Made by a program: the position numbers and the translations under genes
Assembly (NCBI GenBank): GCA_054600435.1
Contig: BAAIJX010000075.1
Span: 1 to 64,000, forward strand
Source: Neophaeotheca triangularis
Lineage: Eukaryota
Direction: 5' to 3'
DNA: 64,000 nt
Shown: positions 5,924 through 56,429 of the stretch, piece after piece
How positions within the stretch are numbered: position 1 is the first letter of the stretch
How the letters are laid out: each line of letters begins with the position of its first letter
The notes under the pieces: generated by a model
What the model saw: only the letters and a program-made list of their open reading frames with translations
Databases searched by the model: none
What the model was told of the DNA's origin: nothing

Positions 5924-6473
5924 CCCTTTCTTCTAAAGGGGTTTCTTCCGTTTAGGGTCGGGCAGAAGATCTATCGACAACCAATGCTAGGGCCAAAGAA
6001 GCGTTCGTAGCTAGCAGAAGCGTGATTTCCAGAACGAAACCGATACTTTGATCTCAGGGATGGTCGATTCAAGTAGGAGGTAGCTGGGTAAGTTATGCCG
6101 CGATCTGAGACACATCATCAGCCAGTCAACCCATTGCTTTGCGAGCGGTCTCGGATTACCTTTCAGCGGACATACGTGACGCTGGTCTCCTGACAGAAAG
6201 ATGCTGGCGATACTCCCGATAAGGTAAGCAGGTAACTCGTAAGGAGCAAGGTAATGTTGTATGTGTCGCTACTAGGGAGGGAGGCTCATTGGATGCCTTC
6301 TGTGCCTTTCGTGGGTAGTATCGATGTGTAACGGCTCGAACGGGTAAGCCGTCTTATCGCATCGCTTATCGCCTACCTCGGCACCAAGTTAGCTCTAGCT
6401 CCAGCTGCTCTTTACTGTCGTCTCATCTTGGAAGAGCTCCAAGTCCAAGTCCAATGCGTCGACCACACCCAAA

Positions 6474-12741: not shown

Positions 12742-13695
12742 TCACACCCCAGCATCCTCAGGCCTTACATTCAAATCCCAACATATCTCCCCCTCCTCCC
12801 CATACCGCTCCCTCAACCACTCATTCGCCTTGCGAAAATGACCCCCATCAAAAAACCCCTTGTGCGCACTCAACGGACTCGGATGCACACTCTTAAGAAC
12901 CAAATGCTTACTTCCATTGATCCTCGCGCACCGCTTCTGCGCGGGCGAGCCCCAAGCTAGAAACACCACACCCCTCGTGCGCTTGGCTGCGACCGTGTCG
13001 ATGACTTTTTGCGTAAACTTCTCCCATCCTTTGTTGGCGTGGCTGTTGGCTTCGTGCGCGCGTACCGTGAGGCAGGTGTTCAGCAGCAGCACGCCGGCGT
13101 CGGCCCAGGGCGTCAGTAAGCCCGAGTTACCGGGCGGTGGTTTGAAATCGGGATAGTCCTTCTCCAGGGCTTTGTACATGTTTTTGAGCGAGGGCGGGGC
13201 AGGCGTAGGTGGGCGCACGGAGAAGCAGAGGCCGTGAGCTTGGTTGAGGTTGTGGTAGGGGTCTTGGCCGAGAATGACGGCTTTGACGGAGGGGAGCGGT
13301 GTGTGCCGCGACCAGCTGTAGATGTCCTCGGGCGGAGGGAAGATTTTGGTCTTGCCGGTGGCGGTCTCGCTTTTGAGGAAGCGTTTGAGGTCGAGGAATT
13401 CTTTCGATGTGACTTCGTCTTTTAGTGCGGCCAGCCAGCTTTCGTGGAGGGTTTCGATTTCGAGTTTGAGAAGGTCCTTTTGCTCGGGGGTGAGTTTGGC
13501 GATCCAAGCCTCTTTGTCGAATGGGGTTGGTTTGGTGGACGGGGCTGTGGGGGATGAGGGTGGGTTGGACGGGTTTGTCGAGGAGGTTGGAGGGTTGGTT
13601 TTGGGTTGGCCGAAGAAGGAGGTTATGGAGCCATTGGCTTTGGGCTTTTTGGCGGCTTCGGTGGCGATCTCGGTGGTTTTGCGTTTAAGTGACAT
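12742..13695 (-). CDS. UNG1: Uracil-DNA glycosylase (family 1)
   Basis: GQDPYH, AHGLCFSV, PPSLKN, GVLLLN and HPSPLSA motifs; PIP-like ITSFF and a basic NLS at the N-terminus. Confidence 0.97.
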   Translation of the reverse strand: MSLKRKTTEIATEAAKKPKANGSITSFFGQPKTNPPTSSTNPSNPPSSPTAPSTKPTPFDKEAWIAKLTPEQKDLLKLEIETLHESWLAALKDEVTSKEFLDLKRFLKSETATGKTKIFPPPEDIYSWSRHTPLPSVKAVILGQDPYHNLNQAHGLCFSVRPPTPAPPSLKNMYKALEKDYPDFKPPPGNSGLLTPWADAGVLLLNTCLTVRAHEANSHANKGWEKFTQKVIDTVAAKRTRGVVFLAWGSPAQKRCARINGSKHLVLKSVHPSPLSAHKGFFDGGHFRKANEWLRERYGEEGEICWDLNVRPEDAGV

Positions 13696-13724
13696 GGTTG
13701 TCGATTCGTGAAGTTTTTAAATGG

Positions 13725-22344: not shown

Positions 22345-24626
22345 ATGTTGCCATCACTGTCGTTTTCTTGGTCCCTTTCCGCCAACAACTCCACCGCCTC
22401 GACGCCTTGCTCTCGCTTCGTTTTCGCCAGTCTCTGCCTTCTGTTGCTGGTGGGGCAAGCACTCGCCGATACCAAAGAAGACGAGATTGAGGAAGAGGCT
22501 CATGATCTCGGTTTGTTTAACTTTGTCAGCGTAGGTGCCATCCATCTTCCTGCTTGCGACCGAGATCAAGTTGAGCTGACATGTTTATCCCAGAGACCTG
22601 ATCTGAAGCCGCCACGGTGGAACATCACAACCTACGATGAAGATGCGCTGGATGAGGGGTACTGGTTTCTGGGACCGGTAAGTCCGACAGCGTCGAGTTG
22701 GTGCGGAAACGGTGAGAAAGAGACGCTGACGCTGACACTTCTACCCTCCTCCAGTACAAGAATCTCAACGAGCCCGAGAACGCCGGACGAGGTTGGATAG
22801 GGCCGCATATCTACGATGGCAACGGGGACCTCGTCTGGAGCGCCGCAGACATCACCGACAACGGCAACGTCGAAGACTTTACGATTAGCAATGTCAACGG
22901 CGAGCAAATGCTCACTTTCATGTGGCAAGCTGCCGCTGCTGGAGTCCTGATCGATGAGACTCTGACCGAACGCGAGCGCGTGCATTTCGATGGCCATGTC
23001 AATACTCATGAATTCAACTTTGTCGATGATGGGACGAGAGTGCTTGCTGTCAAAACGGATACTATGGATGCGACTGAGGAGCAGTTGAGTCACTTGGATG
23101 AGGATATCGACGCTTGTATTGTCCATTGGGATGGCTTTGTGGAGTTGGAGGTGGGGACATGGGAGGAGACTTTCCGGTGGAGGTCTGGGGACTGGGTCGG
23201 ACTCGACGAGAGTACTGATAGATGTGGTGCCGGGCTCGAGAAGTTGTGTGAAGGATGGGATTACATGTACGTGGGCACCTCAGCCCCTGTGATCTTCTCG
23301 CCACGCTGTGCGCCCCACTAACACAACAGCAGCCATATGAATTCGATCGACAAAACCCCAGAGGGCGACTATCTCATTTCCATGCGCCATGCCGATACGA
23401 TTCATAAAATCTCCAAAGACGACGGTCACCCCATCTGGAGGCTCGGGGGGGCCAGGAGCGACTTTGACATGGGCAACCTCACTTTCACCCGTCAACACAA
23501 CATCCGCTACCGCGGCAGCAACGACACGCACACCTTTGTGAGCATTCTTGACAACGCCCTGGGACAAGATCCCTGCGAGCCCTCTCACGAATTCTCCCGA
23601 GGCCTCCTCATAGCCCTCGACGAGGACAAAATGACAGCTACAGCCATTGCGAACTACGACCACCCCTACGGCCCCGACAACCACAGCCCCCGCCGCGGCA
23701 ACTACCAAGCCCTACCCAACTCCAACGTCTTCATGGGCTGGTCCGAACAAGGCCTCCAAAGCGAACACGCCCCCAACGGCACCATCCTCCAAACCGCCAA
23801 CCTCCGAACCGAATGGCTCGGCACCTACCGCAGCTACAAACTCCCCTTCACTGGCCGTCCCGCTTACCCACCCGATGTCGTCTCTACTGCTCTCGGCAAC
23901 GACACCGAAACTGGCACTTCGACCGTCGTCCACGTCTCCTGGAACGGCGCCACCGACGTCGCTTATTGGCGCCTGCACCACGCTACCCCCGATGGCAAAA
24001 TCACCGAACCTCTCGTCTCCCAATCCCGCGCGGGCTTCGAAACAGCCATCACCTACAACGGCTACGCGCAGTACGTTGTCGTCTCCGCCCACGATGCCGA
24101 TGACTCTGAGCTCGGCCGCTCGGAGATCACCGAAACCAACATCACCGCCGGCATTTCCCCTGTCGCCGTTGCCGAGGATAGGGCCTGGCAGCTCCAAGCG
24201 GGTGGCGGGGGCCACGGGTCTAGAGGGCCTGCGGCCGAGCATCCAATGCTCGTTTTCGGGGTTTGTGGGTTCCTGGTCGGATGCGTGGTTTCCGCTATCG
24301 TGGTTCTGGGCTGGTGGGCTGGGAGGTCGAAGGTATCGGTTGGAGGTGTTTCCGCTGGGGTTCAGGGGAAGGGACTGCCGTTTTGGTATCGGTATCAGAG
24401 GGCTTCTGATGTGGGGCATGGGGAAGGGGGGGTGGAGTTGGGCAAGGGAACGGGGGAGAAAGGTGGAGGGGGAGGGAGTGAGAGCGACGACGACGACGAT
24501 GAGAAGGATGTTGGTGCTGAAGCGAATGTCGCGGCTGCGGAGCAGACAAGCGCGTTGCTGGCGGATCATCGCGTGGAGGAGGGCAGGCAGGTGGATGATC
24601 GGGCTGGGAGCTATCTGGATAGGTGA
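22345..24626 (+). CDS. Arylsulfotransferase (ASST-domain) protein, secreted with C-terminal TM helix; 3 introns (~22531-22593, ~22678-22754, ~23267-23331)
   Basis: FVS|RPDLKPP, GPHIYDGNGDLVW, HEFNF, WDY.HMNSIDK, YLISMRH, WRLGG, QHNIR, SYK and VSWNGATDV motifs; hydrophobic signal and C-terminal TM segment. Confidence 0.88.
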
Positions 24627-25391
24627 GGGAGCTGACTAGCTACTTGGCTCTGCTCTGATGTGAGACTACGCGCTTGGTATGATTTCCTTGGAGGTGGGTT
24701 ATTCTGGTCTTAAGAAAGCATATTGTGGATGTAGCCTAGCTAGGGGGATATCGATTGTGCTAGACATGCTGAGGCTCTGTCTGATATCTTCTAACAGTCT
24801 GCTTTCATCGTGGATGTACAGTAAGGGTTATTGATTCCATCCAGCTTCGTTTGTTACTTAAGGGTAATAGACGATGTAATCCCGACACGATTCCAGATTC
24901 CAATTGCATGTGGTTCCAACTGTATAGAATTGCCTACCTCGCGAGGGGAGCATACCATACGACTGTACCCAGAATAAAACACGGTTGGTGTCTATATCAA
25001 GCCATTGGCCGAGTAGAAATCGCGCGAATCCCAAACTCGGACCCTATGGTATTCTTGGCGCAGCGGGGATGCCGGTCTCACTCGTAATCCATCATCAGCA
25101 CCCGACCCATGGATAGGAATCTTTTCAAAACGCATTGTCTCAATAAGCCGAGGCACTACCTCCTAGAGCTACCAGTAGGCCATGGTCTCCTTATTGACGC
25201 TCGACCATGACGCTGGACGTTCCACTCGCGCCAAAGCGGAAGACGACACGAGACAGCCACACGAAAAGCATTAGGCTGAGAACTAATGGACACGATAAAA
25301 CACAACTTTTGGCATCAACTACACACTCGTGCTATGAACAAACCCCGTAATAATGCGGACCCCACCGAGCACTGCGCCAGACCACCCTCCC

Positions 25392-27486
25392 CTACTGCTC
25401 CGACTCCCCATGGCCATGGTTGATGACAGTGCTCTTGGAAGTGACACGGCTCGACGACATCTTGCTCTCGCGGTTGCTAGCCCAAGCCTGCTGCAACTGG
25501 CTCGACTTGCTCTCCTCCAGCCTCTCCAACTCCCTGCACTTCTCCTGGTAGCGGGAGACGGAAGCGTCCCTCTCGCGGTCGGCGGCGTTGCGGGCCGAAA
25601 TGGCCAGCTCCTTTTGCTCGCGCAGGTCGTGGATCAGACTGCGCATCGACTCGATCTCCTGGCGCAGCTCTTCCGAGTCGCTGCCCCAGTCCGTCATCGT
25701 CTCGGTCACTTCTTGGTATTGGTACTTGACGTCGTCGAGCTCGCCGCGGATGGCGTCGCGGTTGGCGGCGAGGGTCTCGTTCTCGGCGATGGCGGTGGTG
25801 AGTTTTTCCTTGATGGCGTTGATCTCGAGCTGGAGCGTGTTGACGCGCTGGTAGGCGTTGTCGCGCTCCCTCTCGGTCTCGCGGAAGTTGTCCGTGAGGG
25901 TCAGGATCTCGGCGCGCAGGTCGGAGACGGTGTTGTCGGTCCTGGACACTTGCTCTTGCAGGGTGATGACTTGACGCGAGTTGTCCGTCACCTTGCGGCG
26001 CTCGACCTCGAGGTCGTCTTTGGCGTTATCCCTCTCGAGCACCATGACGCGCCACTCTTCTTGCTTGGTGTCGAGCTGGGTGCGGACGGAGGAAATGTCG
26101 ATCTCCAAGATGCTCAGTCTCTCGAGCTTCTCGGTGACCTCCCTCTTGGACTGGCCGAGCTTGAGGCTTGTTTCGGCCTGGAGGCTCTCGATCTCTGTAA
26201 GACGGGTCGTCTTGGTGTTGTTGTCGTGCTGACGAATTGATTAGCAATGGTCATGGTTTGTTGGGATATGAACGAATTACCCTCAGTCTGTCGATGGTAG
26301 TTTGGTACTCATCACGCTCCAGCTCAACGTGGCGAACTGTCTCCCTGACTTTGTGGAGCTCACGCTGCATGGCGTCGTGCTTGTCGATGGAGTCTTGGAA
26401 GTCCTTGGAAGCTTCGTCACGGTAGACAGTCATACGCCTGAGCTCCTCAACGAGACGATCCTTTTCATACATGAAGTCGGTGCGCTCGCGCTCCCAGCCA
26501 TGAACTCTTTCGGTCAAGGTGCTGTTCTCCTTGCGGCTCTGTTCCAGCTGCGAAGTGAGCTCGGAAATTTTGCTTTTGAGCTCCGAATTGTCGCGCGTGG
26601 CGGCGCGAGCATCGTTGCGCTGGCGGTCGGCGTCAAGCCTGGCGGAGTCGCGCTCGCTTTCGCGTTCAATCACCGTGGCCTTTACGGCGTCGTAATCGAA
26701 CTTCACCTTGTCGACGTTGTGCTGGAGAGTGTGGTTGGTGTTTTGCAGAGTGGCGTACTCTCTGCGCGAGTACTCGATCTGGTTGTCTCGGTCGGCGACC
26801 TTGGAACAGACGTCAGTAAATCGCGACAAAAAGGGGCAGTGTTCTCTTCATACCTTCTGCTTTTGCTCGGTTACAGCAGCCATGGCGGTGGTGACCTGCA
26901 TCACGAGCTTTTCGACCTCTTTCCTCCTCTCGAGAAGCTCACGGTGCTGGCCTTGGTGATCGCCATCCTTGGCCTCGATGATTTCGGAAAACTCGTCAAT
27001 AGTCGTGAGCATCTCCTCCCTCTCGCGGTTGAAAGATTCGCGGTCTGACATCAAAGTCGTCCAAATCTCTCTGAGCGACGAAGCCTCCTTGGAAGCAGCA
27101 CTCATTAGGTCCATGAGGGAAAAGAACTTGTTCTCGGCCTGCGAGGTCATCTCCGAAGCCATCTTGCTCCGGTGGCTAGCGATGAAGGAGCTGTTTCGGC
27201 GCGAGGCTGAGCTGGAGCTGCGGCCATGTTTGGTCCTGGCTACAGCTTTCGACGAGACGCTGCCGGCTCTCGACATGCCGCTGGACCTGGCCCCATTGGA
27301 CGACGAGAAGTCGGAACCACCCAGACCGGAGGAGCGCAACTTCATCATCGCCAATTTGTCAGTTGCGAAGTCAGTGTTGTTGCCGCTCATGGTGCTGCCG
27401 TTCAGTGTGCTGCCGTTCATGGTGCTTCCACCGTTCAGAATGCTCGAGCTGTGCCCGGTCTCAAGGCCTGGTGCGACAGATGCCAT
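25392..27486 (-). CDS. Long coiled-coil hypothetical protein, ~662 aa; exons 26854-27486, 26281-26799, 25392-26228
   Basis: Two phase-0 GT..AG introns join three ORFs. An S/G/N-rich N-terminus precedes SQAENKFFSLMDLMSAASKEASSLREIW and then ~500 aa of E/R/K/L heptad-rich sequence. Confidence 0.85.
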
Positions 27487-28513
27487 AGTAATTGCGTTGG
27501 AGGCGGTGTTGTTCAAGGGAGATTAACGTGGGAATGCGTTGTTCGACGACAGTCGGAAGGAGGTTAGAAAACGGACGATAGGTCTTCTACTAAGTTACTT
27601 GGGCTCTCGTCTGATTGAAATCTGCGATCGCGTTGAGCCCGGTGGGTGTGCAGCACATAGCTTCTCACCTTGACTACGTCAATGGTCCCGATGATCACGG
27701 TCTTTTCCATCTGGTTTCGACAACTCAATGCTGCTGCTCGGCCGTTGATTTGTGGTGATCTCGGAGGACACCTACGCAATTCACGCACCGCTTTTACTGT
27801 GATTGTGGTAGATCTTACAACCTTAGCTACTAATAAGGTGGATCTCGAAAGCTCCGGCAGTACCATTGACCTTGTCACGAGTCATCAGGACCACATTTCG
27901 AAGACAGCTGGTAGAGCTGGAGTACTGAATTTCCGCTTTAGGACGACCAAAAGAGTGCTACTTTACCCAAAGGGGGCAGCACACCATCTTGCTAGCGGAT
28001 CGACCAATCTGCGGATCCGGGGATAGAAGTTTGCGCCAGCCCCTAGGTGCATATAAAAGCTGCGCACTTGGATGCGAGATGGCCTCACTGCGAGTGAACA
28101 TCTCCACAACGACAGCAATTATTTGAAATGATTTTGATGATCTGCCGACAAAAAATGCCATTGGTATTATTAGTTTCGTGGCTAACCCGGTATACCCATC
28201 TACGGAACTCAACAGCTGTCAACCATGAAAAGTTCTGGTGCCATGACGAAACATGTTGAATCCAAAATGTCCCGTCAGTCAGGGAGGGATTCTGGGATAG
28301 GTTTGGTTCGCAGCCAGGCCAACCTTGGTCTTGGAAAATCTCCGATTTGCAGATTACCTTCTCCATACAGGGCTCGTTCTGGGTCCGGAACTGCGGGTAT
28401 TACAGAGGCCCGCCCCAACCCCGCGGTAAACCTTGACTTAGCTAGCTATGCAAGCTTACAAGTTGCGATTCCACGTCTTCCTTGTGATTTAATTCTGGGG
28501 CAAACGGAGGTCG

Positions 28514-28547
28514 ATGATGATGATGATGATGATGACGATGATGATGA
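28514..28547. repeat. (GAT)n microsatellite in the divergent intergenic region
   Basis: gatgatgatgatgatgatgacgatgatgatga read directly. Confidence 0.9.
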
Positions 28548-29607
28548 GGGACCAGCATGAGTAATGATTCTCCATTGCTTACCCAGGCTATCTTCTGAAC
28601 GTCTAGGAAGAAGAGATGGTCCAAGGTACAGTACATTATTATTGGTATTGCCTCAATAATGTAGATGTGCCAATGGCATTGTTTCTCCTAAGTTTGAACA
28701 GTCCCAGGGTCCGTCCCATGATGGCTTGCGTGACGTTTGCGACGTGCCGGCACGAGGTCGGGTGTTTGGCTAGCGGACGGGACCCCCTCGCCAGGTATTA
28801 TTATATTGATCATTGATTTTGATCATTAATCAGGGCCAACAAGTACCGTACCGTCCGTACTTTAGATCCGCTTGCTGAGCTTGCGCAAACTGCTCCACTA
28901 CTTTGAACTCACCCTTGCTTCTTGGGGTGGTAGGGTGGGCGCTGCTAATCAAGAAAATCATACTTTCGTCATCGGCCGTGTGCAGCACGTCGACCCATTC
29001 AGGTTAATGGACGAACTGGGCATTTACGGCGAGCGTTTGTTGCCTCTTTGGGAGCTCACAGTTCCCCGAAAACCGTGCTCAAGCTCTTCTGTTGACTCGT
29101 TCTTGCAGCTCGACTAGCACTACCTCCTACCTACTCGATCCACCATGACCATCACAACGTAGCCATCCTGTTGGGCGCTATCAACCTGTGGGCTAAACGT
29201 CTTCTCAACACCAAATCGCACGCCTCCTAATGATGTTAAGGAGCATCACCAAGATGGCGACGATCGGCGCAGAGCGTACCGTCCTTGAGGCATCGCGCCG
29301 TGGCAGTGGTCATGAGCACTCGAGAAACCCTGACAATCCAGGCGTCAGCTGCATACCACCTTCATCTCGACCCACTGATAGGCATTGAATCTAAGATGTT
29401 GCATCGAGATCCTCGCGCGGATCCCAAATATCCCTGCTCGCTTTTGTCCGAGAGCTTTAATCCCTACAGGAGCTCTATGAGGGCATAGGTTCTTTTGCAA
29501 GCTCCCTCTTCCTCTTCATCGCTCTCAGTCAACTTCTTTCCTACAAACAACTCCCTGCTTTTCACATCAATATACCCTGTACTTGTAGCGCTTTTCCCTT
29601 TTAAAAG

Positions 29608-32600
29608 ATGCCTGCCGCAACCATGAAGATGTCTGGAAGCTGGTCGAGCTCGGCCAATGGCTACAACGGACATTCGAGGACCTCGTCCAGCACATTTTCC
29701 TTCGCCAACGGTGTCAATGGCACCAAAACCTCCAACAAGAGCAACGCGGGCAAAATCTCGATTGTTTCCGACTCCGCTGCTGCTCTCAAGCGCAAAAGCG
29801 CATCAGAGCTCACCAAAGCGGTATCATCCTCGGTCGGTGAAATGAGCTTCATCAAGCTCGTTCAATGGATCCGCTCCGAGCGCCTTGCCTCGTTGCCACA
29901 CCAGGGAAGCACCTGGGACACTGTGCTCATTCGATCTCTTCACGTCGCCGAGCGTCTACACAAATTTGAAACCTCCATCCAGAGCTTTGCCGCCGACAGC
30001 AGCTCCGCCGGCGAGCTCGCTTACTCCCACCTGAGACTTTTGATGGAGATGGGCCACGAAAACTCTCGCCCGCTAAATAAGGCGTTTGGCCTATTCTACA
30101 GGTGCTCTCTGGTCATCAATGCTCTGCTCGAGAGATCAGAGTTGCTCTCCGCTTCTTACGAGATCCAGGAGCAACTTTGCACGATGTTTACCGATCTGAT
30201 AACCCTGATTGTCGAGGTAGCTATCCACTTCCACAGGTCAGTCGCGGGAATGGAATCCGGCGACTCTTCCGTCAGTTTGGACCTGTACCAAGTTTTCGGC
30301 GACACTTTGCAGACGTATGATGACCGACGCAGCCGGATTACGGACTTGATCTGGTCTTCTCAGACCGACAGGCTTGGTGGCGAGGTCGACGAAGGTTCGT
30401 TCCTTCCGGCGCGAACGTATTCTCGTGATGGGCCGCAGATGCTAACTATGCGACAGTGATTCCCATTGACGTTCTTCGTCGCTGGCTTATGCCGCAAGAC
30501 CGTGTTCTCGATTTGCTAGGCAACGATCACACCGTCTTTGCCGATGACCTTGCCGAGTTCACGGGCTTGTGGTTGCAAGATAGCCTGCTGAAGTTCGTCA
30601 AGGGTAACGACGAGTGCATGTTGGTCAATGGATCCTCGGGCAGCGGGAAAACCACTCTTGCCGCAACTGTCATGGAGAGATTGCAACGCCCTATCGCTAG
30701 ACAGACTTTCCAGTCTGTTTTCGTGACTATTGGTAAGCTTCGCGATCGCCTCGGAGACAACGTATTTGCTGACACGTCCCAGGCGAGGTACCGGCCCAGG
30801 CCACCTCACTCCACCTGGTGAAATCGATCCTCCACCAGCTCTTGCAGAACCGCACTGGTAACTTGAAGTTGTAAGTGTGACCAGTCACCAATCAACCTAC
30901 TCGAGACTTGCCATGTGCTAACATTGGATCCCTCAAAGATACACCACGCTGGTCGAGGCCCATCAAGAAGCTCAGCGCACCGCTGACCCGGAGGCTTACG
31001 AAAACTGTCTCTGGTCCGCGCTCAGCGATGCCCTTCAGAACCCCCTCCACTCCTCAAACCCAACTGTGTTGGTCATAGACGGCCTGGACGACATCAACGG
31101 TAAAAAGCCCGCCGGCCAGAAGCTGCTAGAAAGATTGGTGAATGCGGTCGGCAAGGGACAAAAGACCAAGCTTATTGCATTCTCCGAATCGCTTAGCCTG
31201 CCCAAATCTTCACGAGGCACACAAAGGACGATCACTCCTGAGGACACACGTGACGACAGCCACCTCGTTGCGATCCGTGCTCTTGCTCGATGCTCGCAGT
31301 TCGTACAGCGACCAGGCCCGGAACAAGACACCATTCTCGCCACTATTCTCGATGCTGGCAAAGGATCGTTCACATGGAAAATCCTCTTCTGCGAGTGTCT
31401 GAAGGCCGAGAAGACCCAAGATGCCTTCAACAAGACCTTGGGAACGTTGAAGAGCACGCCCCCTTCGGTCGACGATCTTGTCCTGAAGCTACTAACGACT
31501 CTCCAACCCTCCCTCGACTCATGCCTGGCTCTTGCTTGGCTTAACGGCGCAGCCCGACCCCTGACCTTTGAGGAAATCTCGAGTCTACTCTCTGTCAACG
31601 TTGAGAAGGGCGAGATGAGCAATTCCTCCTCTACCGTGGAGCGTATCTTGGAGAGCGTTAGACCTTTGCTCTCGATCTCGTACAACGTTGTCCGTACGAG
31701 GCATGGCCGCATCGCCGAGGCCTTGCAAAAGAACCTCCAGTCCCTCATCGACCAAGGCAAGATTCCATTGTCTCACAAGAACACCCAGATCGACCTGCTG
31801 CTCAGGTGTATGATCTTTGCCAAGGACTGCCTGCCAGAGTCCAGTGCACCAACGCTCGACCCCGACTATTCTCTACCCGCGAGGTTGTTCCCGAAGCACC
31901 CTCTACTGGAGTACGTCGTAAGATACTGGCCTTACCACCTTGAGCACACACCGTTCAACCCAGCCTCTTCTGGCTCGCCGAAGCTGCCCGAGGAGTTCAA
32001 GAAGGTTTTCCCAGCCAGCACCGCCATGCCATGCCTCGAATACCTCTGCTGGGCCGAACAGTACCCTGGCTCGCAAGAGGTCAAGCTGCACACAACGGGA
32101 TACCAGCTGCGCACCACCATCTTCACGCAAAACCACCCAGCTGTCATGCAGGGTTACATCAACACTGCCCTTTACTACGGTCCCATGGGTAACGACAAGG
32201 AGACCAGCAACGCCTACTACACGGCATGCATTATTGGGAAGAATGTGCTCAAGCCGTCTCACCCCGTCACCGTTGCTTGCGCCAACCACTACCTCGACCA
32301 CACCTCGACCATGGTTACTCCTAGTCGCAGCGAGATCATGACACACCGCGAGCAAGTACTCCAGATCTTGGTCACAGCTTATCAGCAACAATTTGGCGTC
32401 CACTCCGAGATGGTCATTACGACGAAGCAGCAGCTTATCCAGCTCTACTCCTACATCCGCGAAGAAACCAACGCAAACAGCTTGAAGAGCCAGTTGGAGT
32501 TTGATACGGGCACCGGATCTCAATCTTCGTCTGAAAAGGTGTATCCCTCGTCGCTTGGCGGCGCTTTGAACACCAAGCTCGTCTCACGCCGTACGGAGGA

Positions 32601-35600
32601 GAGTGACAAGCCAACCATCAGCTTGTTCGAGGACGAAGAAGAGGAAGAAGAGGACACTACTCTCACCCTCGACACGGCCAAGTCGATGATGGAGAAAGCA
32701 AAGTCGTTGACCAGCCAGAACCAGTTCAAGCAGGCTGAACTGTTGTACGTGCAGCTTTGGCGCCAAATGTCCTCCATTTGCCAATCTACCATGGCCGTAG
32801 AATGGCACCGAGCGAAGATTGACACTGTCAACTCATACGCTCAGGCTTTGAAGTCGTCGAAGCGTGAGTCCGAGAGCTCAGCCATCCTTATGTCGGTTGC
32901 GAAAGAGTATCAACAGCACGAGCTTAGCTACTCGCAGAGCATTGTTTCGAGCATCACGGAATCCGCCGACATCCTCAAGTCGGTTGGGCATGCTGCAGCC
33001 GCTCTGTCCATTTACCAGCAGAGTGCTTCTTACTACTCCAGCACGCACAAGACGGACAGCAAGGAGCTCAAGCAGATTGAAGAGATGATTTCTACCACGA
33101 CTGTGCAGGTCTCGAAGGAAGCTTCTTCCCGCAGCGAGTCTTCCAGCTCCCAGCTATCGGAGAACTCGCTCGAGGCGATCTTCCAGTCTTCCATTCTCAA
33201 CCGCAACTCGAAGATTGAAGCCTCGACCTTTACGTCTGTCAATCGCCTCGTCGAGAAGCACATGTCAGCCATGCAGTACGAAAAAGCCGTGGAAGTCATC
33301 CAAGCCACTTTGCAACGCACCTGGATGGCCTTCACAGCCGACACCACTCACGGCATGTCTTTGGCAAGCGTTTCCTTCCAGAAGGAGTCGATTGCTCTGG
33401 TTGAGTCCCTTTACCAAGCCTACACGCGCTCGCGCAAGGTTGAGAAGGCCATGGATGTGTACCTCAGATTGTACCGTGCCACCGTGCCTGTAGCCAAGGA
33501 GCAGCCTCAACTCTTCGAGAAGCACTACAAGCAGCTCGTTGCCCTGTACGATCAGTACGGATACTTTGACAGGGCCATCACCATTCTGCAGGAGGTTCTG
33601 CCCATCTATACCAACACCTACGGAGCCACCAATGACAAGGTCATCGACTTGCTGTTTGACCTTGGTGACCGATGCCGCAATCACGCCCGCACTCACGCTT
33701 ACTACCTTGAATACTACCAACAGATTGTCAAGGCAACGACCAAGGACAACAAGGTCGTTGGTGCCAGGGCCTTGGAGGCGCTCAAGATCGTTTCTGTCTC
33801 CTACTGGGAAGAGAGGCGCTACATCGAGGCACGCCAGGCTTACGGTCTTCTCTGGGCTACTCTCATCGACACGCATGGAAAAGTCAGTATCACCAAAGAC
33901 CAAGCAACTTACCTGCAAAGCTTGTACCAGCAGTACTACCAATGCCTGGAAGCGACGCAAACAGATTTCGAGACGCTGTACGCTGTGACCGAGCAATACC
34001 ACAACACATGCAAGGCCGTGTTTGGCGCCAACCATGAGGTTACCGCCGCCTCGGCCCAGGCCTTTGCTCAGGTTTGCCAACAGAGCGAGAAGAGCCAAAG
34101 CAAGGCTGTTGAGATGCTCGAGCAGGCATACAGCAACATGTCGTCGAACAGCCGTGCCTCAAGCACGGAGTCTCAGCAGATCACGCAGCAGCTTATCCAG
34201 ACGTACTCTAGGAGCATCTCGCAATCCAGCAGCGCTAGTACCGAGACTGTTGAGAAGTTGAAGACGATGCACCAGAAGCAGTTCCAAGCTTCCTACCAAG
34301 AGTACGGCTACCGCAGCGAGACCAGCATCAACAGCATGAAGGAGATCGCATCGTTGGAGTTCCGTCAGGGCAAGACTGAAGCCGCCATGAAGCAAATCAC
34401 CTCTGCTACCCAGGAGCTCAACACACTGGATGTTTCAAACGAACACATTATCCAGAGCGCCGAGACCATTGCCAGCGTGTTCCAGGCCAGCAACCGAAAT
34501 GAAGTTGCGCGCGAGTTCTTGTCAGACCTGCGGTTGCAGCTGGTTGCGCACGAGAAGCGAGCCGACTCTCGCTTCCAGTTCGACGTGACCAAGTCGAACA
34601 AGGCTTCTTTGGTGTTCCTGGCTACGCTCGAGTACCAGCTGAGGAAGGACATGTCTCTTACCCAGTCGGACATCTACACCGACCTCCTCAGCGAGCGCCT
34701 CTACTACAATGAGTTCTACAAGGTCATCCAGGAGCGATCCTCCTTCGAGGCACTCATCAAGGCTGCCGCACCTCTCCGCCACTACCTGCTGAAGCGCGAC
34801 CGCAAGCAGCAAGCCCAATCTGTCGTCAGCCGCGTTGTCACCATCGCCAACGAACACGACTTGAAGAGCTTCTCTTTGGAAGCAAAAACCACGTCGCCGG
34901 CTATCTTCATCACCGGCATCCTCGACTACATGGGTCTGCGCAGGAACGCGGCCTATGAGCGAGCCGTCATCCTCGCCACCAACAAAGTCTTGCGCGGTCT
35001 AGTTCAGAACAAGAAGTTCGCAGAGGCTTTCGACATTGCTTCGATTGGGTTCAAATACGCAAAGGCCCACGAAGGCTACTGGAACATTGGCCTCCTCAGC
35101 AGCGGCTTCGCTCTCGCTTCTCAACTCGACGGTCGTGGCGTGAACCGCTGCCCTGACGAGACTTTGCGTAAAAAGATGCTGCAGCTCTCCAACACCGTCG
35201 TCAAAGACCTTTTGCAAGTTGCCCGTAAGCAAGGAATCGACTTGGCTCAAGTCCAGCTTTCCGAGCTCAACGAGTTGGTCGCTATGCTGGGCGAGCAAGG
35301 CGACTGGGACACGCTCGAGTCGCTGCTGTCTTCGCTGTGGAACACCAAGAAGGCGCAGCAGACCTGGCCGTCCGACGTTCTTCTGCGTCTTGGTTCCCGC
35401 TTGATTGCCGTCCGCTACCTCTCGGGACAGCCAGTCAAGGCCATCCGCCTGTGCGAAGACATTGCCTACAACCTGCGTCGCACCCAAGGCAACGCCGACC
35501 CTGCCACCTTGGACACTTACAACTTGCTCGTCCAGCTCTACACCAGCACGGCTCAGATGTACCAAAAGTCCGCCGGCAACGACAAGTCATCCGCCACCCT

Positions 35601-36036
35601 CGCCAGCGACTACTTCAAAAAGGCCGTGCTCCTGGAGGAAGACATTCTCCGGCGCTTCGCAAGCGAAGGCGCCAACGGCGAGGCCGGCGACGACGAGGAC
35701 GAAGAGGACACGGCCGCCGCCATCCTGGCCGAGCACGGCGTGCAAGCCGACGGCGTTCCGCACGCCGCCAACGGCCACGACAAGGCCGACCGCAGCGCCA
35801 ACGTCAAGCACCACTTGCGCTTGCTCAAGCTTGCCCACCAGCGTCTGGGACAGTGGCCCAAGCCGGCTCAGGTGTATGAGCAGCTCAACGCCAACATCTA
35901 CCGCTTGTACGGCGACCAACTGAAGGGTGTCGACGGGGTTGAGAAGTGGCAGACCAAGGGCTTTGGGGGAGGCAAGGCTGAAAGCGGCGAGGGCACTTTC
36001 GAGGCCCCGAAGCAGTGGGATATTGTTGTCGCTTGA
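29608..36036 (+). CDS. Large NACHT/STAND P-loop NTPase with C-terminal TPR-like helical repeats (NLR-like), ~2082 aa; introns 30395-30456, 30733-30782, 30871-30938
   Basis: Walker A LVNGSSGSGKTTLA, Walker B VLVIDGLDD, AARPLTFEEI and LLEYVVRYWPYH (typical of fungal NACHT HD/WH regions), then AEL/LY..LW-type helical repeats. All three introns restore frame. Confidence 0.9.
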
Positions 36037-36382: not shown

Positions 36383-37012
36383 CTAACCCAACCAAAAAGT
36401 GCCCTCGACCTCCACAATATCATCGTCGTTCAATCGCTGAACCTCCACAATCGTCCTGGGCGGAAACAGCACCTGGCCACTGGCATTCAACCTCCCCCAC
36501 ATCTCCTGCTGCACCTGATTGACAACCGGCCGCCAGCGATACATATCCGAGACATAGACGACCAAACGCACAGCCGAGGTCTGCCGAGAAGAACGAAGAA
36601 AAGGCGTCAACAAAAACCATTCAATTACCCACGACCAGCCGAGCACCGAGGCGCAATTGTATAAGTTAGGAAACTTGCTTACCAAATCCGTGCCCGCCAT
36701 GTTAGCGAGCTGCTGCATATTCTCAAACGCTTGCCTGACACGCGGGTAGCCAGACTCGACTAGAGTGTTGTTGGCTGGCGAGAAACCGCGCATGCCGGCG
36801 ATGTAGAGGGTCGGGCCGGCTCTGGACATGAGACTCCAGGGCCCGTTTGGCTCGAAGCTTTGGGAGGGGTTGGAGATTTCCACTCCGAGGGGTGAAGTGT
36901 AGTTTGCTCCCGGGGGCGTTGTGGATGGGTACTGGGCGTGTGTGTCTTGGGCGGCGGTTGGGGTTGAGAGCGTTGCGCTGAGCGCGGTTAGGACTGCGAG
37001 TGGGAATTTCAT
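36383..37012 (-). CDS. RidA/YjgF/YER057c/UK114 family protein with N-terminal signal peptide; intron 36581-36682
   Basis: GPWSLMSRAGPTLYIAG, RQAFENM, VVYVSDM and FPPRTIVEV..L....VEVE motifs; MKFPLAVLTALSATLSTPTAA signal peptide. Confidence 0.85.
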   Translation of the reverse strand: MKFPLAVLTALSATLSTPTAAQDTHAQYPSTTPPGANYTSPLGVEISNPSQSFEPNGPWSLMSRAGPTLYIAGMRGFSPANNTLVESGYPRVRQAFENMQQLANMAGTDLVSKFPNLYNCASVLGWSWVIEWFLLTPFLRSSRQTSAVRLVVYVSDMYRWRPVVNQVQQEMWGRLNASGQVLFPPRTIVEVQRLNDDDIVEVEGTFWLG

Positions 37013-37764
37013 TGTTATTGCTGGATTTGTCGGAGCGGTAGGGTTGCGGTTTTCCGTTTCGTCCTGTGGTGGGAGGCGGAAGCGGTTGAATCGAGGGTTG
37101 GCAGCGCGACATCCTGGCTGCTTTGGTTTTGTAGATCGAGAGCCAAGTCGAGTGCGAATGCTTCCTGCCAGATGACGTTGCACATTCTCATGAACCCCGA
37201 TCTGGGGAACATGAAGTTGAGGTGAGACAAAGGGGCTGCGGCGTGCACCAAACAATCGGCTTGTAGAATAACCGTCGGGCGTTGATGATTTGGGTGAAGA
37301 AGCGTGTGCGACCCTTTAGTGATGGGGGCTTCTTCTCTGTGAATGAGAATCAGGAGCTGTCCTCAAACAGGCTTATCCGGTGCCGACAATAACGACCAAG
37401 TGAACCGTGTAGATCCGTTTTCGACAGTCGATGCTCGCCCAAGTCTTACTGACTCTCCATACTCTTACGAGAGATGATCTCGCAGATGGTTGAATGCATC
37501 GGTGTGGAACAGTAGGGAATTATGGCAAATCAGAGATAAGGGAATGAGAGGCTGAGATGCCGGAAGAGCGTTGTATATTCTGTTTCTATCCAACGTCTTC
37601 TAGGTCATCATGTTATGCAACTTTTCCGTTCATGTTCATGGCCAAGAGAGTAAGTAATTGCGATTCTCACAACGACTCTCTCCACCTCCGGTCGATAGCT
37701 CGTCGTTAGGCTAGCCAGCGTTGACAGTAGCACCTGTCCAACTACTTCTCACAAAGCATTCCGC

Positions 37765-40286: not shown

Positions 40287-41158
40287 CTACAGCCTCCTCA
40301 CACTGAACATCAGCCTCATGACTGGGCCTGGCGAGTCCCCAGTTGCATTCTTGCGTTCCGTGCTCTGCCACTGCACCAGTCTCCCTTCCGTCTGGAAGCG
40401 AAGACCACCCACCTCTTCCCCTACTTCATCCCACAAGCGTCTCCAGCTATCCACGTTATGGCGATACATCAGTCCACCGCCCTGTCGCTCTGTCTCGTGA
40501 GGGTGCTCCGCCCCGACCATCCTGCCCACCAAGAGCGAATTGGACTCCTGTCGCAAGAGCCTGGCGACACGATGCGCGACCATTTTCTGCTGTTCGTAGC
40601 CAAAGAGGTGGAAAAAGGAACTCGCGACAACGATGTCGACCTTACCATCCAAGGTGGAAAGCCTCGAAGCCTCGTCGAAGATGTCGGCTTCGATGAAGCT
40701 GGACTTGAGCCAGTTTCTGTCTCTGAAGAGGTCGTAGCCAAGCTCCATGAAAGGCTGTTGCAAGTCGCAACCGTAGCAGTTTGCCGAGTCCACACCGTCC
40801 GCTACGAGTCGGCGGATGTCCTGTCCAAAGCAGCACCCGAGATCGAGAAGAGTTTCATTGCCAGTTTTCATGCGTTGTAGGACTTCAGGGTAGAGATCAT
40901 GGTGTCCGAGGGAGAGCTCGAGGAATCGCCATTGACCGATGCACGGGTAGGGAAAGATTGCCCAGGCTTTTTCGCGCTACTCTTCGCATGAGATGGGACC
41001 GCTGTCGAGATACTACTGTATGTCTGGTTTTCACCTACCACTGCCACTACATGGTCGTTGACCTCGCCGGGCGCAATCTTGCTGTACGACTCGAGCAGGT
41101 CTCGGGTCGGCGCGGGAATGTCGCGGAGCTCCATGTCATACCATCGCTCGGGCTTCAT
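40287..41158 (-). CDS. Class I SAM-dependent methyltransferase (AusD/Trt5-like family); intron 40977-41038; start codon uncertain
   Basis: LLESYSKI, REKAWAIFPYPCIGQWRFL, LLDLGCCFGQDIRRLVADG, SSFFHLF and HNVDSW motifs. Confidence 0.88.
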
Positions 41159-53970: not shown

Positions 53971-56429
53971 TCAAGACATTCTCCTAAGACTACATCCCCA
54001 ACCCCCATCACAAAGCACCCTTCCCTCCCTATCCACAAACCTAACCTCCTCCATCCCCCTCCTCATAACCTCCACCCACCGCACCAAGCCCTCCCCATCC
54101 CACCCGAAATCCACAACTCCTCCGCCCCTAACCCTCAAACCCCTCACGCAACCTCCCTCCCAACTCCCCGGAATCGCCGGCCCAAGAACCACAGTCCTGG
54201 CCCCGTCCTCCGCCCGCTCCCCCAAACCCCCGGGCAAATCCACAACCAACATAGCCAACACGGCTCCCACGTAGCCGAAGTTGGCATCAATTTGAAAAGG
54301 CTCGTACTCGCCACTATACATAGCGAGCGCATTCGGGGCCCAATTCTCCTGCAAAGCCAACCGCAGCTGGAAATGCGCTTGCGTCGTGTCATTGAGACGG
54401 GCCCAGCAAGCCGCGCGCCAGACTTTCTCCCACCCGGCATTGGCGTCTTCGATGCCGGGGCCGCGAGCGATGAGGCTGTTGCGCACGGCGCTGGCAATGC
54501 TGGTGTTGGTGTAGCCGCTGTGGTGGGCTGAGAGGGAGAATCCTGGATACCAGCCGTTGAGGTGGGAGAGGTGGCGGTGGGTGGAGTTTGTGTATTGGGA
54601 GTTGAGGGAGGGGAGTTTCCATTCCATCAGGGTGTTAGTTTTGGGTTCGATGTGGAGGCCGGTGTCGAGGCTTTGTAGGGTGGTGTGCAGGGTTGAGGTG
54701 AACGTGGTGTCGGGGTCGTGGGTTAGGATGGCGGATTGGAGGGTCGTGGTTAGGAGCTGGTGGAGGAGCTGTTGGTAGTGCGAGCATGCGAAGGTTGTGC
54801 CTCCATGTTCGGGTGAGTCGCAGGGGTTGACAACGAGCGTGCCGTCGTTGAAGTAGAGGTCCTGTTGTAGCTGGGTGAGCCAGAATTTGGCAACGCCTTT
54901 GAGGAGCGGGTAGCCGGTTTCTACTAGCCAGTTGAGGTCGCGACTGTAGTCGTAGTAGTCCCAGACGTGCTCCATCATCCATGCGGCGCTTGCTGGGTAG
55001 TTGGCCCAATACGCTTCGCCTGTCTTCATGCCGGTGTGCCCGAATGTGTTCATTTCGTTATGGGTCACCCATCCGGAAGCGTTGTAGAGTAGCCGAGCTG
55101 TCTCGGTACCCCTAGGGACCCACGTATCCTCCATGTACGACCAAAGTGCTGACTGCAAGTCTCCGAGTCCGGTCTGGTCAGCCGGCCAGTGGTTCATTTG
55201 AAGATTGATGTTCGCATGGTAATCGGCACCCCAAGCGTTTTCAAGACCATACGCCCACTTTCCCTGCAAATTCGGCGGGAGCGAGTTGTCCCGAGAAGAC
55301 CCGATGAAAAGAGGTCGGCCGTAATCGAAAGCAAGACCTTCCAGATACGGATCGCCGGCGGTGGAGTTTGCCGAATATCGTGCGATAATTTCGGAGGTCT
55401 CGATATCGGCCGAGCCCAAAGGATCGGGCAGCTCAAGGGTAAAGGCACCAGCAAGAGCGGCGTAGTCTTCCATGTGAGCTTTTATTAGATGGTCGGGGTG
55501 CTTACGCGCAGCTTTTGAAACAGTTCGCTCAACTTCGGGGCCTGGTTCTGCGCCTTTAAACGAGTATGAATGTTGGGCATTGCCGCGACTCGCATCATAG
55601 TCCGTTCCGGCTGCGACAACAAGGGTAATCCGTTTTCGAGCCGAGCCTGGGACAGTCAAAATACCATCCCTACAGTGCGAGCGAGCATCACGGCCAGAAA
55701 CTCGAGCAATGGAGTCATAACTCATCCCCGTGTCGGCTCGTGTTCTGCCCGTGAGACGAACGTGGTTCTTGTCACAGGTCGCAGAGATCAACGACGCGTT
55801 TGAGAGCACGTTCTCCATGTAGACTTCAATCTCTGGCAGAGACTGTGTCGATAACACATCGTAAACACACACTTGGTCCGGGTAAGTGCAGTATGTGGAG
55901 CTGCGAATGATCAGTACATCCCCCAACAAATGCAGCTTGAGAGCACTTACATGGTAAACTCAGCCTCTTCGGCCTCGAAAGTAGTCGTATGCACACCCGT
56001 CTTAAGATCGAGGCTTCTCTTATATTGCTCAACCTCATCGACGCCAGCAATCGAGACGCTGAGATTAGCGAGTACGGCATAGCTTCCATAGTTATCGTTA
56101 GGTCCCATCAAGGCACTCACATTGCCAGTGCCGTTTCGGAAGATCCAGTCGCGAATGCCAGGAAGAGCATCATAGACGGGTTCCGTAGGGTTGCCACCAT
56201 TGTAGCTGCTGTTTTCAAAAGGACCCCCTGTCCATAGACTGTCGACGTTGAGGTTGAGCTTTTCGTGACCGGCTTCTCCGAATGGTAGAGCGGCTAAACG
56301 ACCATTGCCGACGGTGTAAGCGGTGCGGATGATGTCGGAGTAATTTGCGGGCGTTGTTGACCACAGACTTTTCCCTTGGATTAGTGGAACAAAGGCAAGT
56401 AAGAAAAAGGAAAGAACAGTGGGCAACAT
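53971..56429 (-). CDS. Glycoside hydrolase family 95 alpha-L-fucosidase, secreted; intron 55901-55950
   Basis: Signal peptide; VGNGRL, NVDSLWTGGP, PPNLQGKW, WGADYHANINLQMNHW, SPEHG, HRHLSHL and PFQIDANFG motifs. Confidence 0.95.

Follow-up and report, generated by a model that had tools for sequence, protein, structure and literature searches.

A giant NLR-like STAND NTPase and a divergent coiled-coil gene in Neophaeotheca triangularis: two conserved fungal families whose genes are mostly not neighbours in related fungi

The window analyzed in this study is a stretch of 64,000 nucleotides from Neophaeotheca triangularis, a member of the Dothideomycetes. It contains two genes placed head to head, in divergent orientation, with 2,121 bp between their start codons (positions 27487-29607). 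A preliminary description of this DNA had proposed a divergent pair composed of an NLR of about 2,082 aa and a coiled-coil protein of about 662 aa, separated by a spacer of about 2.1 kb, and our gene models (2,082 aa and 662 aa) confirmed this layout. The remaining genes of the window are ordinary housekeeping genes (RNase T2, UDG, GH95, Nop, CCT).

The NLR gene occupies positions 29608-36036 of the + strand. Splice sites read from the sequence defined four exons, which together form a 2,082-aa frame with one stop codon, the terminal one, and all three introns (62, 50 and 68 nt) are of the GT..AG type. Exon 1 (29608-30394) encodes a disordered segment (residues 1-47) followed by an N-terminal domain, the NACHT/NPHP3_N domain begins in exon 2 (30457-30732), exon 3 (30783-30870) has a length of 88 nt, and exon 4 (30939-36036) encodes the remaining part of the NACHT domain, a post-NACHT region, a TPR-like solenoid of ~1,300 aa and a C-terminal tail that is conserved. 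A database protein, P0007 (2,077 aa), is 100% identical to this model and has the same exons, the short exon 3 included; it is an exact suffix of the 2,082-aa product, its ATG being located five codons downstream of ours. The contigs of sequencing runs X3 and X4 were unspliced, which indicates that these runs represent DNA. A seawater metatranscriptome (X5) yielded a single contig of 526 nt covering positions 31245-31791 of the NLR gene, which contains a strand-switch joint and is no demonstration of transcription.

The protein shows the three parts of an NLR-like STAND NTPase: (i) a central NACHT-type P-loop domain with both Walker motifs, (ii) C-terminal superstructure-forming repeats (a TPR_12 match, an all-helical solenoid model and structural matches to TPR scaffolds), and (iii) a domain preceding the NTPase within the same polypeptide (a conserved helical bundle at residues 52-260, in a spliced model that agrees with the database protein). 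Four Pfam families were matched by P0007 above their curated cut-offs, namely NPHP3_N (60.8 bits; cut-off 24.8), AAA_16 (50.9; 32.6), NACHT (35.4; 26.7) and TPR_12 (42.3; 30.1), which bears out the earlier identification of a giant NACHT/TPR STAND NTPase. The Walker A (GSSGSGKT, 30630-30653) and Walker B (VLVIDGLDD, 31066-31092) motifs, both already claimed (Walker B as VIDGLDD), were read directly in the + strand sequence. In an alignment of 11 homologues, residues G316, G319, G321, K322 and T323 of the P-loop were invariant, as was G427 of Walker B, with D429 nearly so.

A 975-aa stretch of the C-terminal region (32728-35652, + strand) was modelled with AlphaFold2 from an 18-row alignment. 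The model is helix-turn-helix throughout (~45 helices of 13-25 residues each; mean pLDDT 84.3), and the best TPR_12 match lies within it, at 34003-34137 on the + strand (P0007 residues 1401-1445). A Foldseek search with this model returned 243 chains at E <= 0.001, the top matches being long TPR scaffolds (chains of Ski3 at E 2.8e-8, Ctr9, subunits of IFT-A, and Naa15). Self-BLAST of the NLR at E <= 10 returned the self match only, and Tandem Repeats Finder detected nothing above about 49 nt, with no array longer than 27 nt in the NLR coding region. The repeats are therefore degenerate, and the previous impression that they are poorly conserved internally was correct.

The absence of a classical effector domain, noted earlier by eye, also held in Pfam searches, since HET, HeLo, lipase and PNP_UDP gave no match (E <= 1 for pieces of the protein; E <= 0.01 for P0007). 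The N-terminal domain itself stayed below every Pfam threshold, and the search with sequence P0002 gave no relevant match at E <= 10; DUF7708 appeared weakly in 3 of 18 N-domain homologues (best E 0.0023). By protein language model features (ESM Atlas), the domain lies closest to clusters annotated with DUF7708 (in 48-58% of their members), Goodbye and NACHT_N (score 0.94, 208/256 features). The AlphaFold2 model of the domain (pLDDT 75.1) is a helical bundle, for which Foldseek found nothing in the PDB at E <= 0.001 (best E 0.012, generic helical bundles). With VIA-align the top match, to designed helical proteins, had a Z of 10.7, which is under the level advised for helical bundles, and the CC domain of plant Rx stood at Z 7.2, inside the noise; the lack of HeLo/MLKL among the VIA-align rows shown carries no weight. 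Judged from these comparisons, the N-domain appears to be a family-specific helical bundle, with the Goodbye/DUF7708/NACHT_N class as a lead.

The coiled-coil gene lies on the - strand (27486-25392) and consists of three exons separated by GT..AG introns at 26853-26800 (54 nt) and 26280-26229 (52 nt). Exon 1 (27486-26854, 211 codons) encodes a disordered S/G/N-rich start, within which a 15-nt tandem repeat of about three copies (27371-27426) specifies NGST-type repeats, and then a conserved helix with the family consensus ELTxQAExKFFALMDLMSxASREASSLKExW. Exon 2 (26799-26281) has 173 codons, and exon 3 (26228-25392; 278 codons and the stop) encodes the part of the protein that is best conserved within the family, close to the C-terminus, where R565-E607 contains invariant columns in alignments A2 and A4. 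Residues 105-630 have a high content of E, R, L, T and D and only 1.1% P+G, and they lie between S-rich ends. No Pfam family reached its cut-off for the products of the three exons or for four full-length homologues, the many sub-threshold matches of the protein being to coiled-coil families (Fez1, CENP-F_leu_zip, TPR_MLP1_2, Filament). The family comprises 115 proteins at E <= 1e-5, including those of Pleosporales, Zasmidium, Knufia, Capronia, Cadophora, Rhynchosporium and Lachnellula, and its sole sequence match in the PDB was to CCDC40 (E 0.00084), a generic coiled coil. At the level of sequence, this family is conserved across several classes of the Pezizomycotina and carries no named function. 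Among the matches listed by a full-text literature search there was no paper on either family, and SNOG_14963, PTT_06770 and DUF7708 were unmentioned.

The region between the two genes (27487-29607) contains no ORF above 124 aa and gave no Rfam match at E <= 0.1. A poly-Asp ORF found within it (28186-28560) is due to a (GAT)11.7 microsatellite at 28513-28547, at which the contigs of a second strain break.

Homologues of the NLR, collinear over the full length (100% query coverage, 38-51% identity), were found in named Dothideomycetes (Cladosporium, Hortaea, Glonium, Septoria, Ramularia, Kalmusia, Pyrenophora and Patellaria), and a second clade of relatives is distant and paralogous (23-26% identity). 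In the tree, which comprised 59 sequences after removal of 19 of 78 rows for query coverage below 60%, the named taxa of the Dothideomycete clade fall by order, and SH-like support was 1.0 for a Pleosporales-like clade and 1.0 for the clade uniting the window with Cladosporium and Hortaea. A profile of the N-domain retrieved 540 representatives at E <= 0.001; among the best 150 of these, 34 had a length of at least 1,800 aa and the domain at the N-terminus. Ten of the 34 were looked up, and the eight named clusters came from Dothideomycetes, Leotiomycetes, Lecanoromycetes, Eurotiomycetes, Sordariomycetes and Chaenotheca.

The conservation extends over the whole protein. Mean pairwise column identity was 0.57 in the N-domain, 0.51 in NACHT, 0.42-0.54 in the solenoid segments, 0.70 at residues 1801-1900 and 0.60 in the C-tail; thus, the sensor region is conserved to the same degree as the NACHT domain. 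The second strain differed at 87 positions across the 7,848 nt holding the NLR (about 1%), with one 3-nt deletion in addition, and the number of repeats was unchanged.

These data bear on the possibility that the protein is a typical fungal receptor of non-self or allorecognition, which would trigger cell death through its helical N-domain irrespective of the neighbouring gene. Its tripartite NLR architecture and the closeness of the N-domain features to the DUF7708/Goodbye/NACHT_N clusters are in line with such a role, and Goodbye-like domains are reported, in the sections of the paper available to us, to be structurally related to the HeLo/MLKL four-helix bundle (Wojciechowski et al. 2022, PMC9815663). 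However, fold searches with this particular N-domain reached generic helical bundles only, the highly conserved repeats with number polymorphism that mark diversifying NLRs are lacking, the sensor is no more variable than NACHT among the homologues, and the second strain differs by about 1% only. Nor did we find, in the Dothideomycete clade of the tree, the patchy, paralogue-rich distribution and conflict with the species tree expected of such receptors, as the named taxa there sort by order. We consider this explanation very unlikely, and the sequence comparisons show the NLR behaving like a slowly evolving orthologue.

The preliminary description went further and suggested that the two genes form a functional NLR plus coiled-coil module. 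The adjacency of orthologues had been set in advance as the check that could refute this proposal. We analyzed 61 metagenome loci containing a relative of the NLR, with flanks of up to 10 kb, in which the coiled-coil gene was sought by tblastn (E <= 1e-5), with 384 ORFs of the window (E <= 1e-8) and with the family HMM (E <= 0.01). All three types of search revealed it at one locus only (L041); within these flanks the genes are mostly unlinked. After dereplication at 85% identity, the adjacency was kept in 1 of the 10 Dothideomycete lineages whose loci extend 6 kb or more upstream of the NLR start, again L041, and in none of 4 lineages of the distant clade. Both lineages of the window's own clade that have enough flanking sequence (L001 and L004) lack the coiled-coil neighbour. 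In Pyrenophora teres 0-1 the two genes reside on separate contigs, of 4.38 Mb and 3.32 Mb, and separate contigs were seen in two assemblies of this species. The upstream neighbours in other lineages are unrelated, among them genes for GH131, a methyltransferase, a class II aldolase, an alpha/beta hydrolase, a DDX23-like helicase and a DDE transposase, and three lineages of the Pleosporales clade have in common an upstream gene different from the coiled-coil gene. For the most part, this comparison does not support the proposed module.

The exceptional locus deserves attention. In L041 the coiled-coil gene lies at 4127-6212 (- strand) and the open frame of the NLR runs from about 9326 (+ strand), with no evident gene between them. 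This locus belongs to the Pleosporales clade, another subclass than that of the window's organism, and with the 384 window ORFs no further gene in common besides the pair was detected. The pair is very unlikely to have formed a second time by chance, and it has therefore most probably persisted from a time earlier than the divergence of the two subclasses; the parts of Ohm et al. (2012, PMC3516569) available to us date the ancestor of the class to over 280 million years before the present. The retention of the divergent pair in L041 keeps a weak version of the module idea alive.

One version is a functional unit with a bidirectional regulatory region, in which the coiled-coil protein would serve the NLR as adaptor, scaffold or guarded target and selection would preserve the linkage wherever it survives. 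The same divergent layout in two deeply separated Dothideomycete lineages with otherwise unrelated neighbourhoods would fit such a unit, as would the breadth of both families in the Pezizomycotina and the enrichment of functional relations among conserved divergent pairs of fungi, reported in the available part of Davila Lopez et al. (2010, PMC2871058). Against it stand the separation of the genes in 9 of 10 informative Dothideomycete lineages, both informative ones of the window's own clade included, and in P. teres. Moreover, the intergenic sequence of the window has no conserved counterpart in L041 (best E 0.082 with blastn and 0.029 with tblastx), and the spacing is long (2.1 kb in the window, >3 kb in L041), unlike that of typical conserved bidirectional pairs; highly conserved fungal pairs tend toward short intergenic distances, according to the same partially available source (PMC2871058). 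The proteins also have no short motif in common beyond what composition explains: the local score of 43 between NLR residues 1-60 and the coiled-coil protein was reached by 174 to 189 of 500 shuffles. Complex prediction of the NLR N-domain with the products of coiled-coil exons 1 and 3 gave a score of 0.00 twice, in runs with neither controls nor supplied alignments, and speaks neither for nor against. On balance, we regard a functional unit of this kind as unlikely.

A related possibility is that the pair represents microsynteny older than the split between Dothideomycetidae and Pleosporomycetidae, and that selection has kept it in some lineages because the coiled-coil protein is the conserved endogenous partner, as scaffold or guarded target, of an NLR that is non-polymorphic and of housekeeping type. 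We hold this to be quite improbable; if true, fungi would possess a conserved NLR signalling pair that has neither an amyloid motif nor a classical effector domain.

These observations are probably best explained by two independent conserved fungal genes whose adjacency is a remnant of the ancestral Dothideomycete arrangement and not an obligate functional unit. The ancestral adjacency would have survived in the lineage of the window and in at least one lineage of Pleosporales, and would have been broken in most others. By analogy with what is established for NLRs, from which the following steps are inferred, the NLR is most likely a nucleotide-dependent switch: its solenoid would bind a ligand or partner protein, the NACHT domain would then exchange nucleotide and oligomerise, and the clustered N-domains would relay the signal onward. 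Since the whole NLR, sensor included, changes slowly and in step with the taxonomy of the named species, what it senses is more likely to be a partner that is conserved and probably endogenous than a non-self molecule that changes fast. The coiled-coil protein, predicted to be rod-like with serine-rich disordered ends, would most likely act as a structural tether or scaffold.

As a two-gene system the pair is a weak finding; in practical terms, the neighbourhood seen in one genome was no guide to that in its relatives. Variable receptors that shuffle their repeats have been the main subject of work on fungal NLRs, and the papers available to us in part describe their diversity and effector classes and call the Goodbye-like class functionally uncharted (PMC4986451, PMC9815663); a search of PMC12258605 for conserved or core NLRs brought nothing usable. 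The window NLR represents a family of proteins of about 2,000 aa, with named members in several classes of the Pezizomycotina and housekeeping-like evolution. Should a conserved endogenous role be demonstrated, this NLR would offer a useful counterpoint to the picture of fungal NLRs as immune receptors.

In systems of the NWD2/HET-S type, an NLR gene adjoins a divergent second gene, and a short motif is common to both proteins. The window NLR likewise adjoins a divergent second gene, but the shared motif is missing, the coiled-coil neighbour has no HeLo or other execution domain detectable by Pfam, and the adjacency is gone in most lineages. The coiled-coil family resembles SnaD, spindle-pole-body and centrosome-type proteins in being a long ascomycete coiled coil; a cluster named SnaD was the third nearest to the Zasmidium homologue P0128 in the ESM Atlas (0.89, 125/256 features), which is below the level of 0.9 required for more than a lead and has no alignment support. 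With Nephrocystin-3 the NLR has in common the best Pfam match of its P-loop (NPHP3_N) and the TPR-type repeats that follow, whereas TPR_NPHP3 scored 16.2 bits (cut-off 100) and the N-domain and size differ; the two proteins belong to the same domain class and are not orthologues. The order of parts is the same in the Goodbye-like NLRs with NACHT and TPR, as described in the accessible portions of Dyrka et al. (2014, PMC4986451) and PMC9815663. In contrast to these, the window NLR has an N-domain under all Pfam thresholds, is unusually long (about 2,080 aa) and behaves like a conserved orthologue instead of a variable paralogue. Its degenerate repeats nevertheless fit the finding, given in the part of Dyrka et al. 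(2014, PMC4986451) available to us, that proteins combining a Goodbye domain with highly conserved repeats are very rare.

Gene models were built from ORF scans and splice sites read in the sequence, and the exons were joined by scripted coordinates. The gene of the NACHT/TPR STAND protein (NLR; + strand, exons 29608-30394, 30457-30732, 30783-30870 and 30939-36036) has three introns of 62, 50 and 68 nt, all GT..AG, and its spliced frame codes for 2,082 aa, the only stop being the terminal one. The database protein P0007 (2,077 aa; 'hypothetical protein MBLNU230_g7746t1 [Neophaeotheca triangularis]') is 100% identical to the model and an exact suffix of it, and thus represents an independent annotation with identical exons and a start 5 codons downstream. 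The divergent coiled-coil gene (- strand, exons 27486-26854, 26799-26281 and 26228-25392, splice sites likewise read; introns of 54 and 52 nt) encodes 662 aa, and the two start codons lie 2,121 bp apart. The sizes, strands and coordinates in the preliminary description all match these spliced models.

The region between the genes is structurally polymorphic between strains: it carries a (GAT)11.7 microsatellite (28513-28547) at which the contigs of a second strain break, and in that strain 13 nt at 28154-28168 are swapped for 132 other letters. Within exon 1 of the coiled-coil gene, a 15-nt tandem repeat (27371-27426; approx. 3 copies, 79-83% matches) codes for NGST-type repeats in the disordered N-terminus of the product. 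Two sequencing runs labelled air metagenome (X3, 10 contigs; X4, 2 contigs) contain sequences 99-100% identical to the window, spanning 25344-28895 and 30324-36018; these contigs are unspliced across the introns and are therefore DNA, and two loose ends on them resemble library adaptor sequence.

Scanning of metagenome contigs with the NLR alignment yielded 203 pattern-matching stretches, 77 of which encode a relative, and these form 61 loci, each with flanks of 10 kb at most. The coiled-coil gene was found at only one of the 61 (L041) by three separate searches: tblastn with 10 members of the coiled-coil family (E <= 1e-5), a comparison with all 384 ORFs of the window that encode 70 aa or more (E <= 1e-8), and a family HMM run against six-frame ORFs (E <= 0.01). 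In L041 this gene occupies 4127-6212 (- strand), from approx. 9326 the NLR reading frame is open (+ strand), no gene was found between them, and the pair is divergent, like that of the window.

Loci whose sequence extends 6 kb or more beyond the NLR start on the upstream side, dereplicated at 85% identity, were regarded as informative. They represent 10 Dothideomycete lineages (the L001 group, the L004 group, L012/L018/L019, L014, L015, L016/L017/L035, L021, L022/L023, L034 and L041), of which one contains the pair within flanks of up to 10 kb, and four distant-clade lineages, none of which contains the coiled-coil gene. The gene is also missing from L001 (10 kb upstream) and L004 (8.8 kb), which belong to the window's own clade, and from L018, L022 and L042, although these last three, with 3.4-3.8 kb upstream, are only partly informative. 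The proposal that the genes form a two-gene signalling or defence module is largely unsupported by this distribution of adjacent, divergent orthologues (1/10 Dothideomycete and 0/4 distant lineages).

The upstream genes of the other loci are related neither to the coiled-coil gene nor among themselves, and include genes for GH131, anoctamin, methyltransferase, RRP12, class II aldolase, alpha/beta hydrolase, DDX23-like helicase, Sad1/UNC and DDE transposase proteins. Local synteny of the NLR gene is present within subclades, but the partner differs. A gene of approx. 735 aa without a Pfam family is common to three lineages of the Pleosporales clade (L015 841-2277, L019 1311-3503 and L035 445-2664, all on the - strand; 61-72% mutual identity). 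In L034 a DDE_3/HTH_Tnp_Tc3_2 transposase ORF (4154-5275, + strand) lies immediately upstream of the NLR homologue, possibly as a trace of rearrangement at this site. The two genes are on separate contigs in Pyrenophora teres f. teres 0-1 (NLR CFE70_005957, 4,379,536 bp; coiled-coil gene CFE70_006436, 3,318,494 bp), and in P. teres f. maculata the respective contigs are of 4,458,776 and 2,408,443 bp. The intergenic sequence is not shared between the window and L041 (best E 0.082 in blastn and 0.029 in tblastx), and the two window proteins have no short motif in common beyond composition.

L041 falls in the Pleosporales clade (Pleosporomycetidae), and the window organism belongs to the Dothideomycetidae. 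It is very unlikely that chance re-created the same divergent pair in two subclasses, and therefore the adjacency is most simply explained as ancestral to the Dothideomycetes and then broken repeatedly. According to Ohm et al. (PMC3516569), the ancestor of this class is more than 280 million years old, gene order has been reshuffled by intrachromosomal inversions, and some small gene blocks persist, possibly under selection. Davila Lopez et al. (PMC2871058) report that conserved divergent pairs of fungi are more often functionally related, which favours a real functional link between the NLR and the coiled-coil gene, but also that highly conserved pairs have short intergenic distances, to which a spacing of 2.1 to > 3 kb is a poor fit; we regard such a link as unlikely. 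The two genes are probably independent, and their adjacency a remnant.

Elsewhere the window carries ordinary genes (4406-5932, 12742-13716, 23322-24626, 36383-37315, 53971-55959, 61457-62836 and 62846-63997), namely RNase T2, UDG-superfamily glycosylase, arylsulfotransferase-like, RidA/L-PSP-like, GH95 and Nop56/58-type genes and a CCT chaperonin subunit; this is no region of defence or accessory genes. Approx. 4.3 kb downstream of the NLR gene is one for a class I methyltransferase (Methyltransf_25/11/12; 40290-40976, - strand). Its relatives in L060 (998-1600) and L061 (4451-5053), both with 32-33% identity and E ~1e-34, precede distant homologues of the NLR (24-26% identity) by approx. 5 kb. 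It is a second recurrent neighbour of the NLR family, and this recurrence could be due to chance.

None of the three exon products of the coiled-coil gene reached a Pfam cut-off, and all three matched coiled-coil families many times below threshold. E, R, L, T and D are abundant in residues 105-630, where proline and glycine together make up 1.1%, and the ends on either side are serine-rich. A search with the last exon retrieved seven proteins (homologues of 530-720 aa), and the profile built from them detected 115 family members (E <= 1e-5), including proteins of Zasmidium, of many Pleosporales, of Eurotiomycetes (Knufia, Capronia) and of Leotiomycetes (Cadophora, Rhynchosporium, Oculimacula, Lachnellula), under generic names only ('chromosome segregation ATPase', 'HOOK multi-domain protein'). 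Coniothyrium glycines has two members, P0052 and P0103 (ACN47E_007146, ACN47E_005989), and thus paralogues occur in at least one species. Conservation peaks in a helix near residues 110-150 and in a stretch near the C-terminus. The sole PDB sequence match was generic (CCDC40, E 0.00084). In a feature search with the Zasmidium homologue, unnamed ascomycete coiled-coil clusters came out on top (0.91, 0.90), followed in third place by one named 'Spindle pole body associated protein SnaD' (0.89, 125/256 features), which we treat only as a lead. The product is a rod whose ends are disordered and which has two conserved patches, and it may act as a tether or scaffold.

In the NLR (P0007), Pfam profiles exceeded their curated cut-offs for NPHP3_N (60.8 bits vs 24.8; residues 306-458), AAA_16 (50.9 vs 32.6), NACHT (35.4 vs 26.7) and TPR_12 (42.3 vs 30.1; residues 1401-1445). 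Walker A (GSSGSGKT, 30630-30653, + strand) and Walker B (VLVIDGLDD, 31066-31092, + strand) were read in the sequence, and the P-loop residues do not vary across an alignment of 11 homologues. The AlphaFold2 model of the exon 1 product (18-row metagenome-locus alignment; mean pLDDT 75.1) predicts disorder in residues 1-47, followed by a long-helix bundle (52-260). Foldseek found no solved fold matching it at E <= 0.001, and the best hits of a wide VIA-align search (Z 10.7) were designed helical proteins, linking it to no specific solved fold. In a protein-language-model search the nearest clusters were ascomycete ones with DUF7708, Goodbye and NACHT_N (0.94, 208/256 features), and weak Pfam matches to DUF7708 occurred in 3 of 18 homologues (best E 0.0023); the Goodbye/DUF7708 class is a lead, not a membership. 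The 975 modelled residues of the C-terminal region are helix-turn-helix throughout (mean pLDDT 84.3) and matched 243 chains at E <= 0.001, the best being long TPR scaffolds such as Ski3, Ctr9, IFT-A subunits and Naa15, which bears out the description of a degenerate TPR-like repeat region exceeding 1,000 aa. Its remark that these repeats are not highly conserved internally also holds, no similarity among them being detectable: self-BLAST at E <= 10 returned the self hit alone, and the DNA showed no tandem array.

Of 7,999 candidates scored in a word-indexed search, 39 proteins reached E <= 0.001. The full-length hits (100% coverage, 38-51% identity) belong to named Dothideomycetes from a number of orders, and a second tier (23-26% identity) to other taxa. 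In the query-anchored tree (59 sequences; 19 of 78 rows excluded at query coverage < 60%), named taxa cluster by order, and two clades have SH-like support of 1.0, a Pleosporales-like one with Pyrenophora and Kalmusia and that of the window, Cladosporium and Hortaea. P0019, a 2,234-aa homologue labelled Quercus suber (CFP56_37332), is placed inside the fungal clade beside Hortaea and the window, and is probably a fungal sequence within a plant assembly. An exhaustive N-domain profile search detected 540 representatives with E <= 0.001, of which 322 remain at 1e-10 and 77 at 1e-30. The best 150 of these comprise 34 of at least 1,800 aa with the domain N-terminal, five of 650-1,799 aa and 111 of < 650 aa; many of the last cover one profile half alone or stop where the match stops, which fits gene calls halted at an intron, so that they do not make a good case for an N-domain protein that stands alone. 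Ten long proteins were looked up and eight clusters were named (Diplodia, Lasiodiplodia, Coleophoma, Sclerotinia, Agyrium, Aspergillus, Apodospora and Chaenotheca), so the family has members in several classes of Pezizomycotina.

One polypeptide combines an intact, conserved NACHT-class P-loop NTPase, a conserved helical N-domain and a long conserved TPR-like solenoid. By analogy with established NLR and STAND biology, the solenoid would keep this NLR inactive until a partner is bound, nucleotide exchange would drive oligomerisation, and the clustered N-domains would signal. The evolutionary pattern suggests a conserved partner, probably an endogenous one.

Conservation is even along the whole NLR: mean pairwise column identity is 0.57 in the N-domain, 0.51 in NACHT, 0.42-0.54 in solenoid segments, 0.70 in residues 1801-1900 and 0.60 in the C-terminal tail. 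Over 7,848 nt containing the gene, the second strain shows 87 differences and one 3-nt deletion, with repeat number unchanged. That the NLR is a conventional non-self receptor seems quite improbable. Diversifying fungal NLRs, as characterized by Dyrka et al. (2014; PMC4986451), have highly conserved internal repeats and repeat-number polymorphism, whereas the window NLR evolves in the opposite pattern.
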